Assembly: GCF_000270205.1 (NCBI RefSeq)
Contig: NC_015913.1
Span: forward strand, 1,440,001 to 1,472,000
Length of the DNA: 32,000 nucleotides
From: Candidatus Arthromitus sp. SFB-mouse-Japan
Lineage (GTDB): Bacteria; Bacillota; Clostridia; Clostridiales; Clostridiaceae
Reading direction: 5' to 3'
Shown here: positions 28,587 to 29,241 of the stretch, in pieces
How the letters are laid out: each line of letters begins with the position of its first letter
How positions within the stretch are numbered: position 1 is the first letter of the stretch
Notes under the pieces: model-generated
Databases searched by the model: none
Seen by the model: only the letters and a program-made list of their open reading frames with translations
What the model was told of the DNA's origin: nothing
Program-made: the position numbers and the translations under genes

Positions 28587-28612
28587 AAAGAGTGCATCAC
28601 TGCACTCTTTTC
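28587..28612. terminator. Bidirectional terminator (adhE / methyltransferase)
   Basis: AAAGAGTGCA, a loop TCAC, then TGCACTCTTT. The methyltransferase TGA stop codon (28599-28597) lies in the loop and its last codons form the right-hand arm. Confidence 0.7.
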
Positions 28613-29241
28613 TTATAACCATTTATAATATAAAATTCTCTTCTATTACTCTCACCTAAAACTTTAGCCCACTTACTCTCAAAAGGAATATCATCCTTTA
28701 ATATTAAATTAATCTCTTCTATTTCTATATTATATTTATAATATAACGGTCTAAAAATATTTCTAAAATACTCATCATTAAATAAAGGCAAATTCCTCTT
28801 TTCTATCTCCATCTTTTCAAATTTATCATTATAGGAAAAACATATTTTAATCATTCCACCATCTATCAATAATTTAGATATATTATGTACAATACCTAGT
28901 TCTTCCTTAAATAAACCTTCAAGTAAACTACCCCAAGGTAAATTTATATAAACTTCTGAAAACATATTATATAATAAGTTATCTATATTCTGAACATTCA
29001 TAATAATATAAATTAAATTACTTACCTTATTTTTATATTGCTTAATTGCATACTTTTTCATAGAATTTCCACAAGAATCTAACCCAATATAAAAATTATT
29101 TTTATTATCCAATGCACTAAAATATACAAATGCTCCCTGTCCTGTACCCAAATCAATTATCAACTTATCATACGACTTTATCTTATCTAAAAAATCTTCA
29201 TTACCTAACTCAATTTCCTTACTACTCCTAAGTATCCTCAT
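28597..29241 (-). CDS. Class I SAM-dependent methyltransferase resembling NpmA/KamB-type 16S rRNA (adenine1408-N1) methyltransferases
   Basis: 214 aa. By-eye collinearity with my recollection of NpmA (about 219 aa): IIDLGTGQG vs HIDLGTGDG; NFYIGLDS vs TFYIGIDP; INLPWGSLLE vs ILFPWGTLLE; EIEKRNLPLF vs EIKKRGLPLL; SKWAKVLG..REFYIINGY vs SLWAKRLAFG..SFFRVSGH. Confidence 0.7.
   Translation of the reverse strand: MRILRSSKEIELGNEDFLDKIKSYDKLIIDLGTGQGAFVYFSALDNKNNFYIGLDSCGNSMKKYAIKQYKNKVSNLIYIIMNVQNIDNLLYNMFSEVYINLPWGSLLEGLFKEELGIVHNISKLLIDGGMIKICFSYNDKFEKMEIEKRNLPLFNDEYFRNIFRPLYYKYNIEIEEINLILKDDIPFESKWAKVLGESNRREFYIINGYKKRVQ

Follow-up and report, generated by a model that had tools for sequence, protein, structure and literature searches.

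The chromosome of Candidatus Arthromitus sp. SFB-mouse-Japan carries, on the minus strand of the 32-kb stretch of DNA analysed here as a whole (hereafter, the window), a gene with an ATG start (28597..29241) whose 214-aa product had been proposed, in an initial annotation made from the nucleotide sequence, to be a homologue of the NpmA/KamB 16S rRNA m1A1408 methyltransferases associated with pan-aminoglycoside resistance. SFB (segmented filamentous bacteria) are much-studied immunomodulatory gut commensals and inducers of Th17 cells that are difficult to grow and to manipulate. The locus thus raises the questions of whether the protein truly belongs to this family of enzymes, whether its gene is native to SFB or acquired, and what the enzyme does in its host. 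The SFB protein itself was previously uncharacterised, while its family is already known and assigned in databases, the NCBI entry for the exact protein reading "rRNA methyltransferase". The "NpmA" label borne by the rat-SFB orthologue is a generic pipeline name, also found on an unrelated Bacillota MAG protein.

Family assignment of the SFB methyltransferase

The 214-aa product was assigned to the SAM-dependent Kam/NpmA family (PF24675) and is a predicted 16S rRNA m1A1408 methyltransferase. The Pfam NpmA profile matched it with 177.7 bits against a cutoff of 60 (E=2.5e-52), residues 3-207 aligning on profile positions 2-211 of 214, and HMMER comparison with the NpmA structure 3p2e returned an E-value of 1.1e-28. 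The best 10 matches in a PDB sequence search were all A1408 methyltransferases. An AlphaFold (AF2) model of the protein (pLDDT 91.6, pTM 0.89), which features a class I Rossmann-like core and an N-terminal beta-hairpin (strands E2-5/E8-11), was compared to known structures using Foldseek, yielding TM scores of 0.90 to NpmA (3mte) and 0.89 to KamB; the top 19 PDB matches consisted of m1A1408 enzymes only (TM 0.75-0.90), after which scores fell to ~0.6. Profile, PDB sequence search and fold comparison thus agree with the earlier proposal that the product is of the Kam/NpmA family rather than a generic methyltransferase and, on the strength of its sequence and modelled fold, the protein is confirmed to belong to the NpmA/Kam rRNA methyltransferases as a true, chromosomally encoded but divergent representative. 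That it could be a generic class I or a TrmB-like tRNA m7G46 methyltransferase mislabelled through similarity is barely conceivable and effectively refuted by the same three comparisons: TrmB is the nearest other family by structure (PMC2995053), but the matches to Methyltransf_4 (22.2 bits vs 24), TrmB NF001080 (30.7 vs 132) and TIGR00091 (22.5 vs 112.65) were weak, sub-threshold and all confined to the N-terminal SAM-binding half of the protein (residues 25-102), TrmB structures reached TM scores of only 0.60-0.67 to the AF2 model compared to 0.75-0.90 for Kam enzymes, and the protein matches Kam enzymes specifically over its full length, in the beta5/6 and beta6/7 linkers peculiar to the family and in both tryptophans.

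The divergence of the SFB enzyme is apparent from the NCBIfam cutoffs for named alleles, all of which were missed: NpmA (NF000030; 95.4 vs 470), WarA (68.2 vs 305), NpmB (57.7 vs 460) and KamB (48.9 vs 350). According to structure-function work, homologues of low identity count as bona fide A1408 methyltransferases provided they retain the key residues (PMC2995053). NpmA (E. coli pARS3; npmA2 in C. difficile and E. faecium; PDB 3mte, 3p2e and 4ox9) has the same Pfam family, fold and motif order as the SFB enzyme, and a length of 219 aa compared to 214 aa. UncKam from an uncultured bacterium (PDB 7jlz; ~29% identity, E=3e-27) is also 214 aa long and, like the SFB enzyme, a family member of neither producer nor clinical origin; no conserved genomic context is known for UncKam, whereas one is known for the SFB enzyme. 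KamB from Streptoalloteichus tenebrarius, which serves self-protection in an aminoglycoside producer, and the actinobacterial or myxobacterial CacKam/Kmr are chromosomal, intrinsic enzymes of the same family and fold, although the sequence match of KamB to the SFB enzyme (E=3e-9, partial alignment only) was much weaker than that of NpmA.

Inheritance, genomic neighbourhood and transcription signals

Seventeen SFB orthologues were found, all of them full length, 55-87% identical and invariant at the key pocket residues. The order HAD-abgT-methyltransferase was identical in all nine SFB-type loci, among which the orthologues are as little as 55% identical, and the methyltransferase displayed a dN/dS of 0.15-0.17 at unsaturated dS, compared to 0.20 for the neighbouring HAD hydrolase. 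The methyltransferase is an old core gene of the SFB lineage, inherited vertically and under purifying selection. The host is clostridial (Candidatus Arthromitus/Neoarthromitus, Clostridiaceae), in keeping with the anaerobic spore-former predicted by the initial annotation, and the housekeeping setting described there was also borne out: the window encodes LeuRS, TrpRS, TyrRS, RF3, DpaA, AdhE, AbgT and HAD, among other proteins that are housekeeping or metabolic only, and no transposase, integrase or phage genes were found in its 32 kb. At ~24% GC, the gene does not stand out from its surroundings (18-35%), and tblastn searches of 72,556 plasmids and 50,697 phage records retrieved no relatives.

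These observations bear on the origin of the gene, for which a native reservoir or an ancestor of the resistance family had been put forward. The native character of the gene stands, given its synteny in nine loci; its status as proximate ancestor does not, the SFB enzyme being 29.5% identical to NpmA when other environmental members of the family reach 42-48%. With closer relatives of NpmA elsewhere in the family, the SFB gene is, as judged from sequence identity, not the source or ancestor of clinical npmA. Mobile members of the family do exist, with npmA1 and npmA2 carried on IS26 and Tn7734/ICE Tn7740 elements, and npmA is suspected to have come from Gram-positive gut anaerobes (PMC12271512). 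That the SFB gene was recently acquired or is mobile, or that it is a direct reservoir of clinical npmA, is nevertheless very improbable and is effectively refuted by identity, by synteny kept across deeply diverged SFB lineages with a location fixed in the nine loci, by an unremarkable composition, and by the plasmid and phage searches. Thus, the SFB gene is chromosomal, syntenic and vertical, whereas npmA is IS- or ICE-borne. No literature linking Arthromitus/SFB with NpmA or aminoglycoside resistance genes was found.

Immediately upstream and co-oriented with the methyltransferase gene in all nine SFB-type loci lies a gene for an AbgT-family transporter (29302..30900, minus strand; Pfam ABG_transport, 649 bits), the top NCBIfam match of which was ydaH, "AbgT family antimetabolite efflux transporter" (550 bits, short of the cutoff of 753). 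A ribosome-binding site, GAGGTG, was read from the sequence 4 nt 5' of the methyltransferase ATG (29246..29251, minus strand); GAGGTG or GAGGTA is present in 8/9 SFB-type loci, and AAGGAG in the remaining one (L009). Between the abgT stop codon and this site, a hairpin with a perfect 12-bp stem and a 6-nt loop (29260..29289, minus strand) is directly followed by a U-rich tail, TATTTATT (29252-29259, minus strand). The hairpin was found in 9/9 SFB-type loci, with compensatory change (e.g. L008, L003), and the folded upstream segments of these loci yielded dG values of -12 to -18 kcal/mol. It is likely the abgT terminator or else an attenuator. A strong promoter-like site was located at 31009-30981, on the abgT side, and a GATAAT with a 9/12 promoter match occurs within the 5' arm of the hairpin between the two genes, the corresponding arm of L008 displaying no matching -10 box by eye. 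As far as can be inferred from this arrangement, abgT may be a co-transcription partner of the methyltransferase gene or the source of read-through into it. At the 3' end, a terminator scan revealed an intrinsic terminator hairpin (28584..28613, minus strand) that overlaps the last codons and stop of the methyltransferase gene, is bidirectional and is common to the convergent adhE gene; comparable hairpins are located 3' of the methyltransferase in most orthologous loci. Rfam searches detected no RNA family in the window, including the 510-nt gap upstream of trpS.

Catalytic residues and cofactor pocket

All of the motifs highlighted in the initial annotation are present in the stated order: IIDLGTGQG (motif I), FYIGLDS (motif II), MNVQNID, LPWGSLL (motif IV), SKWAKVL and the C-terminal basic patch NRREFYIINGYKKR (residues 199-212). 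HMMER alignment equated W103, W191, R201, D30, D55 and Q84 of the SFB enzyme with W107, W197, R207, D30, D55 and E88 of NpmA, respectively. The two tryptophans expected to stack on A1408 were thereby recovered and, with the best matches of the protein being A1408 methyltransferases, both Trp residues, D30 and D55 were found to be conserved. Residue counts were taken from an alignment of 142 family sequences comprising 17 SFB and 125 other members. Motif IV (residues 101-107; 28921..28941, minus strand) provides P102 and W103, the equivalents of NpmA P106 and W107 and one predicted wall of the pocket for the flipped A1408, both of which are invariant in 142/142 sequences. The W197 equivalent is invariant save in three gapped sequences; in the SFB enzyme, it is part of SKWAKVL (residues 189-195) within the beta6/7 linker (28639..28677, minus strand), which runs from S189 and W191 (NpmA S195 and W197) through R201 (NpmA R207) and harbors V194 at the position of NpmA R200. 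S189, W191 and R201 are invariant in SFB. The beta5/6 linker segment (28795..28818, minus strand) contains E142 (NpmA E146, the R207 brace) and R149 (NpmA R153, a 16S rRNA contact), both invariant across the SFB clade. In non-SFB members, the R207 position is occupied by R in 113/125 and the E146 position by E or D in 115/125. In NpmA, R207 is described as holding the phosphate of the flipped A1408, E146 as bracing R207 and R153 as contacting 16S rRNA (PMC4705659). The pLDDT of the beta6/7 linker in the AF2 model was lower (63-78), in keeping with a linker known to be mobile.

The lysine-rich beta2/3 linker helix (residues 58-72, GNSMKKYAIKQYKNK; 29026..29070, minus strand) is the predicted 30S docking surface. 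Within it, K67 and K70 never vary in SFB and K62/K63 hardly do, K72 is also present, and the AF2 model predicts a helix at residues 58-70 that bears these lysines. The linker is three to four residues shorter than that of NpmA and equal in length to that of UncKam; residue-by-residue equivalence in this segment is ambiguous, the HMMER and MAFFT alignments being different.

Mutagenesis of NpmA showed D30A, W107A and W197A to be inactivating and E88A, R200A and R205A to be tolerated (PMC3061052). The residues experimentally essential in NpmA (D30, W107, W197 and R207), the brace E146 and R153 are all invariant in SFB, and this critical set is thus common to both enzymes. The SAM-binding loop of motif I (residues 28-36; 29134..29160, minus strand), with D30 and G32/G34/G36, and motif II (residues 50-56; 29074..29094, minus strand), with D55, whose equivalent binds the ribose hydroxyls of SAM (PMC3061052), are in the same situation: none of these five residues varies within the SFB clade, and at least 117/125 other members conserve them, D or E being counted at the two acid positions.

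The cofactor pocket otherwise departs from the rest of the family. Within MNVQNID (residues 81-87), the codon for Q84 (28990..28992, minus strand) occupies the place of NpmA E88, the motif III acid that contacts the adenine N6 of SAM, and HMMER alignment agrees with the initial annotation that this acidic position has changed. Q is found there in 17/17 SFB sequences, compared to E in 105/125 others and Q in just 1/125; E88 is not strictly family-defining, as it is absent from ~16% of members. Three further departures of the clade had gone unflagged: D35Q, R/K37 to A/S/G, and K/R200V. Position 35, in motif I, is Q in 16/17 SFB sequences and D in 107/125 others; position 37, next to motif I and just beyond 29134..29160, is A in the protein under study and A/S/G in SFB, as opposed to R/K in 91/125 others; and V194 is clade-specific, with K/R at the R200 position in 101/125 others. 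Relative to NpmA, the SFB enzyme thus bears Q35, A37, Q84 in place of E88, V194 in place of R200 and a shorter beta2/3 linker, features which (with A, S or G at position 37) make up a signature of the SFB clade; none of the 125 other members combines all four substitutions. UncKam, with its equally short linker, retains the canonical D35 and E88 (GTGDG, SVEYF), unlike the SFB enzyme, as does the nearest outgroup, fragment P0046 (49% identical). A search for a full-length sister lineage by way of P0046 found only this singleton, on a 1.2-kb contig, and the timing of the Q35 and Q84 changes therefore rests on a single fragment.

It is conceivable that these four substitutions on the SFB stem, together with the short linker, altered cofactor affinity or substrate choice, yielding a catalytically weakened or retargeted enzyme that methylates A1408 inefficiently or acts on another nucleotide or RNA. 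The substitutions are fixed in the clade (16/17 for Q35), essentially unique within the family and grouped around the SAM pocket and RNA surface, and P0046 keeps D35 and E88. Three of the four positions are moreover important in KamB or CacKam: MICs drop to 50, 10 and 400 in KamB K37A, R196A and E88A, and to 16 in CacKam E94A (PMC4705659, PMC2995053), the change at the E88-equivalent position being harmful in both enzymes (PMC4705659). We nonetheless consider such an outcome improbable. The residues of the A1408 pocket and of base flipping (W103, W191, R201, E142 and P102) are all invariant, D30, D55 and GxGxG are unaltered, the fold is that of the family by Foldseek, purifying selection indicates that the SFB methyltransferase does something, and Gln remains able to take a hydrogen bond from the adenine N6. 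NpmA, furthermore, is fully tolerant of R200A and of E88A, the latter mutant keeping the full kanamycin MIC of 1024 mg/l (PMC3061052), so that Q84 at the E88 position is not disqualifying. The E88, R200 and R205 positions thus appear dispensable in the SFB enzyme as they are in NpmA, whereas the E88-, K37- and R196-type residues on which KamB and CacKam rely are missing from the SFB enzyme. From this comparison, the SFB enzyme looks mechanistically NpmA-type rather than KamB-type, with one critical Arg and its Glu brace, and tolerance to loss of the E88 carboxylate.

Proposed mechanism and role in SFB

The above analyses directly support the family membership and fold of the enzyme, the conservation of its residues, its vertical descent and the purifying selection acting on it. 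The reading that we favor, with a probability of about three in four, is that the product is a functional class I Kam/NpmA-family methyltransferase which is native to SFB and would produce m1A1408 in the manner of NpmA; from its likeness to NpmA, it most likely methylates N1 of A1408 in 16S rRNA. Beyond A1408 specificity, we infer that the enzyme is catalytically competent, what resistance phenotype it would confer and how its gene is transcribed. In the proposed mechanism, the lysine-rich beta2/3 linker would dock the enzyme on the assembled 30S subunit and A1408 would be flipped out of helix 44, the distorted backbone being held by R201 (NpmA R207) braced by E142 (E146). The flipped base would stack between W103 and W191 (W107 and W197 in NpmA) and receive the SAM methyl group on its N1. 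Ribosomes carrying m1A1408 would render SFB refractory, at the target level, to most 2-deoxystreptamine aminoglycosides and to apramycin.

SFB are fermentative anaerobes in which aminoglycoside uptake is expected to be poor, so that resistance may be of limited selective value. In the anaerobe C. difficile, npmA2 brings about a gentamicin MIC >256 mg/L (PMC12271512), and target methylation is therefore not redundant in anaerobes. WarA from Nocardia wallacei (NF051863) sets a precedent: it is a chromosomal Kam-family enzyme, intrinsic to its species, that makes a non-producer broadly resistant to aminoglycosides. Its host, unlike SFB, is an aerobic actinomycete where aminoglycosides matter clinically. 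The SFB antibiotic studies that were examined used cocktails only, and thus provide no single-drug neomycin phenotype.

The same m1A1408 chemistry could alternatively serve a housekeeping role, as a constitutive mark of the decoding center that tunes translation in a reduced-genome commensal, with resistance as a by-product. The retention of a core, syntenic gene under purifying selection in SFB of different hosts, whose genomes measure ~1.5-1.65 Mb, and the absence of a resistance-island context around it are consistent with such a role, and KamB is described as raising translational accuracy in E. coli (PMC12406665). Distant relatives also occur in lineages such as Saccharibacteria, Patescibacteria, WWE3 and Margulisbacteria, which likewise have small genomes and do not respire, although these came from a GTDB genome scan that used an SFB-centred alignment (A1) and was thus biased by its search pattern in the taxa recovered. 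Against this role, none has been demonstrated for any Kam/NpmA family member, NpmA costs E. coli fitness, and the family, in contrast to true housekeeping rRNA methyltransferases, is very rare and has a patchy distribution (448 clusters among 1.84 billion representatives). A housekeeping function is accordingly possible but doubtful. More unlikely still is an extended scenario in which a core m1A1408 methyltransferase, present since before the host-specific radiation of SFB and their relatives and with a rewired cofactor pocket (D35Q, R37A/S, E88Q), would lay down a constitutive, lineage-specific housekeeping mark, pan-aminoglycoside resistance being a side effect, and would possibly form one unit with the AbgT-type antimetabolite transporter via the terminator/attenuator hairpin. 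Should the housekeeping mark prove true, the SFB enzyme would be the first of the Kam family with a physiological role outside antibiotic producers and clinical resistance, and this role would account for the scatter of the family in small-genome, non-respiring bacteria.

Returning to the favored reading of a native, NpmA-like m1A1408 methyltransferase, the SFB enzyme is not a new kind of system and, with pipelines already assigning the family, will come as a modest surprise to specialists. It adds a well-defined, vertical and host-associated clade to a rare family and excludes SFB as the origin of npmA, and its fixed D35Q/E88Q/R37A/R200V signature offers a natural experiment on the "functional dichotomy" that has been reported for NpmA-type versus KamB-type enzymes. 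Provided that the enzyme is active, all SFB lineages would be aminoglycoside-resistant at the ribosome itself, a property that would help in devising selective antibiotic regimens and media for the enrichment or culture of these bacteria, and in reading antibiotic-cocktail experiments.

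Family assignment and predicted structure

The gene at 28597-29241 (minus strand) reads, from an ATG start with a GAGGTG ribosome-binding site 4 nt upstream, as a 214-aa product in which all of the motifs quoted in the initial annotation were found in the order stated. Searched against Pfam, the product matched PF24675 (NpmA, 16S rRNA adenine1408-N1 methyltransferase) over residues 3-207 of 214 with 177.7 bits (E=2.5e-52), far from a chance match given the gathering score of 60; its remaining Pfam matches were generic methyltransferase domains, below threshold and confined to the N-terminal SAM-binding half. 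Scores against the NCBI allele-level models all missed their cutoffs by far (NpmA, 95 bits vs 470; WarA, 68 vs 305; NpmB, 58 vs 460; KamB, 49 vs 350). Thus, the protein is a family member and none of the named enzymes. Annotation pipelines already assign it to the Kam/NpmA family, and the identical protein appears in public databases as an 'rRNA methyltransferase' of Candidatus Arthromitus sp. SFB-mouse-Japan (e.g. BAK57104.1), a host placed by NCBI in Candidatus Neoarthromitus, family Clostridiaceae. The orthologue from rat segmented filamentous bacteria (SFB; 83% identical) is labelled '16S rRNA (adenine(1408)-N(1))-methyltransferase NpmA', a generic pipeline name also carried by an unrelated Bacillota MAG protein.

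The best ten PDB sequence matches were all A1408 methyltransferases (NpmA 3p2e and 3mte, E about 1e-28; UncKam 7jlz, E=3e-27; then NpmB1 (7ehf), Kmr, CacKam and KamB), with E above 0.06 beyond these enzymes. An AlphaFold2 model built from 21 homologues was confident (pLDDT 91.6, pTM 0.89), confidence being reduced only in the beta5/6 (84-87) and beta6/7 (63-78) linkers, which are the mobile elements of the family. When this model was compared to the PDB with Foldseek, the first 19 chains in a row were m1A1408 methyltransferases (TM 0.90 for NpmA, 0.89 for KamB, 0.88 for CacKam), followed by a steep fall to about 0.6 for other class I methyltransferases. The Pfam, PDB and Foldseek results thus bear out the proposed NpmA/KamB homology. 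The beta2/3 linker is 3-4 residues longer in NpmA than in the SFB clade, whereas that of UncKam, another solved enzyme, is as short. A generic or TrmB-like methyltransferase has a negligible probability, the other Pfam domains being sub-threshold and TrmB structures reaching TM 0.60-0.67 only.

Functional residues and a clade-specific signature

Residue equivalences were the same in the HMMER, SFB-orthologue and 142-sequence family alignments. Invariant in the SFB clade are D30, G32/G34/G36 and D55 (numbered identically in NpmA), P102-W103 (NpmA P106-W107), E142 (E146), R149 (R153), S189 (S195), W191 (W197) and R201 (R207); both tryptophans reported initially are therefore present. In NpmA, function is abolished by D30A, W107A and W197A, the MIC drops to half with D55A, and the mutants E88A, R200A and R205A retain the wild-type value of 1024 mg/l (PMC3061052); R207, braced by E146, holds the phosphate of the flipped A1408, and R153 contacts rRNA (PMC4705659). 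Read against these published roles, the SFB residues make up a complete NpmA-type catalytic and recognition set.

Four other positions set the clade apart. NpmA D35 is Q in 16/17 SFB sequences (D in 107/125 others), R37 is A, S or G (R or K in 91/125), R200 is V in 17/17 (K or R in 101/125), and the acidic SAM-contacting E88, where the initial annotation had already noticed an amide, is Q in 17/17 (E in 105/125, Q in only 1/125). None of the 125 non-SFB family members in the alignment combines the four changes. The closest non-SFB sequence, a 133-aa fragment with 49% identity, retains D35 and E88, which places the origin of the changes on the SFB stem. In KamB (MIC of 50 for K37A, 10 for R196A and 400 for E88A) or CacKam (MIC of 16 for E94A), residues equivalent to three of the four are important (PMC2995053, PMC4705659), position 37 lying outside the NpmA mutant set (PMC3061052). 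Because the changes tested in NpmA, E88A and R200A, are tolerated, the SFB enzyme looks NpmA-type in the published 'functional dichotomy'.

We favor an active NpmA-type enzyme that would methylate A1408 on 30S subunits and give SFB intrinsic, target-level aminoglycoside resistance (probability about 0.75); confidence in catalytic activity stops there mainly because we infer the NpmA-type assignment. The earlier argument that such anaerobes are usually insensitive to aminoglycosides anyway is weakened by npmA2, with which even C. difficile reaches a gentamicin MIC above 256 mg/L (PMC12271512). That the same m1A1408 chemistry serves a housekeeping role is a possible, if clearly less probable, reading of the biology, and one compatible with the favored mechanism. 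A weakened or retargeted enzyme, toward which the KamB and CacKam mutants point and from which the tolerated NpmA changes and the invariant residues point away, is unlikely.

The SFB locus, its inheritance and its expression signals

Consistent with the reported lack of a mobile-element signature, no transposase, integrase or phage gene was found in the 32-kb window. Its genes encode a LacI-type regulator, LeuRS (2249-4711), TrpRS (trpS, 8815-9807), TyrRS (16048-17268), an SNF2 helicase, a signaling cluster at 10319-12988 (plus strand; GGDEF diguanylate cyclase, calcineurin-like metallophosphoesterase and 267-aa RelA/SpoT-domain small alarmone synthetase) followed by RF3 (prfC), DpaA, a 2,749-aa GH94-domain protein, AdhE, the methyltransferase, an AbgT transporter and a HAD hydrolase. 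The GH94 giant (17427-25676, minus strand) adjoins the methyltransferase locus in all SFB-type genomes examined. Its C-terminal half carries glucoamylase-like, GH94 supersandwich and GH94 catalytic domains, a set reminiscent of cyclic beta-1,2-glucan synthases; the residues up to about 1267 drew no Pfam match (E<=1e-5), and no NCBIfam model matched the protein (E<=1e-10). Rfam detected no T-box or other RNA family at gathering threshold in the window with its three aminoacyl-tRNA synthetase genes, and the 510-nt gap that precedes trpS (9808-10318) gave no match even at E<=0.1; this absence is either unusual for a Clostridiaceae genome or a reflection of extreme AT-richness.

The methyltransferase gene has a GC content of about 24% (local range 18-35%). 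HAD hydrolase, abgT, methyltransferase, then adhE and the GH94 giant follow in the same order in 9/9 SFB-type loci, including those of rat SFB, an uncultured Ca. Arthromitus MAG and the chicken 'Ca. Dwaynia gallinarum', with methyltransferases that share 87, 83, 64, 63, 63, 62, 62 and 55% identity with the window protein (one orthologue, at 63%, came from two assemblies, L003 and L004); the HAD-abgT-methyltransferase context occurred in 0/16 more distant homologue loci. Nei-Gojobori dN/dS values for mouse SFB against its closest relative and against rat SFB were 0.15-0.17 for the methyltransferase (dS 0.34-0.66), 0.05-0.09 for abgT, 0.09-0.11 for adhE and 0.20 for the HAD hydrolase, and tblastn against 72,556 plasmids and 50,697 phage genomes found no relative. 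Fixed synteny, purifying dN/dS and the lack of plasmid or phage relatives thus show that the gene is old, inherited vertically, maintained by selection and part of the core of the SFB lineage. A genome-contig scan did not return the mouse and rat SFB genomes although its search pattern matches their sequence; their records may be masked or absent in the scanned collection, so that absence from the scan list does not equate to gene absence.

A predicted bidirectional terminator hairpin with flanking A- and T-runs (28584-28613), shared with the convergent adhE, overlaps the methyltransferase stop codon and last five codons; this overlap may explain why the mouse, rat and closest SFB lineages all keep the encoded peptide, KKRVQ. 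A second hairpin with a 12-bp perfect stem (29260-29289, minus strand) separates the abgT stop codon from the methyltransferase ribosome-binding site and is followed by a U-rich tail, TATTTATT (whole element, 29252-29289, minus strand). Hairpin and tail are kept in 9/9 SFB-type loci (the window, L001, L003 and L006-L011), and the stem sequence is entirely different in some, such as L008, making the stem changes compensatory. The 8-20 nt between hairpin and ribosome-binding site leave no room for a promoter, and the strongest promoter-like site (31009-30981, 11/12 match) is upstream of abgT, which together suggest that the methyltransferase would be expressed by terminator read-through from abgT, or under attenuation; alternatively, an embedded weak promoter-like site (9/12 match) may serve it. 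The invariable upstream neighbor abgT (29302-30900, minus strand) best matched, among curated profiles, the ydaH 'antimetabolite efflux transporter' subfamily, below cutoff (550 bits vs 753), and second a p-aminobenzoyl-glutamate transporter. The conserved transporter and rRNA-methyltransferase pair could form a small drug-tolerance unit, or AbgT could salvage folate precursors next to an unrelated methyltransferase.

Family distribution and the origin of npmA

A phmmer search run exhaustively over 1.84 billion cluster representatives yielded just 448 relatives at E<=1e-3, of which 176 reached E<=1e-10; the entire SFB clade collapsed into a single representative, the next full-length relatives being about 33% identical. 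In a neighbor-joining tree, the 17 SFB sequences were monophyletic on a long stem. The spread of distant homologues in named genomes (25-38% identity) is patchy: Clostridium sp. MAGs, Acetivibrio alkalicellulosi, Desnuesiella massiliensis, Herbivorax, Anaerobacterium chartisolvens, Oscillospiraceae, Chloroflexia, Saccharibacteria, Patescibacteria, WWE3 and Marinamargulisbacteria. Homologues 31-37% identical were seen in several small-genome, non-respiring candidate phyla, at loci L020 and L024-L026 (Patescibacteria/Saccharibacteria) and L021/L005 (Marinamargulisbacteria) and as P0051 (WWE3); the Margulisbacteria gene overlaps a HEPN-domain gene. This pattern, drawn from a biased scan, hints that family members do more than confer classical aminoglycoside resistance.

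A study from 2025 that surveyed 1.9 million genomes did not settle where npmA came from, with Gram-positive gut anaerobes as its suspects (PMC12271512). The suggestion that the SFB gene is a reservoir or ancestor of the resistance family finds no support in the proximate sense: the window protein is 29.5% identical to NpmA, against 42-48% for other uncharacterized family members, and SFB are ruled out as the direct source. A mobile gene or npmA reservoir is very improbable.

The family with its fold and mechanism was already known, as were chromosomal homologues in non-producers (PMC2995053, PMC4705659), among them WarA, cited in PMC12406665; our literature search found no paper discussing the SFB methyltransferase. 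New here are its place in the SFB lineage as a core gene that is deep, syntenic and under selection, the four-residue signature distinctive of the SFB enzyme, and the exclusion of the SFB gene as the source of npmA.
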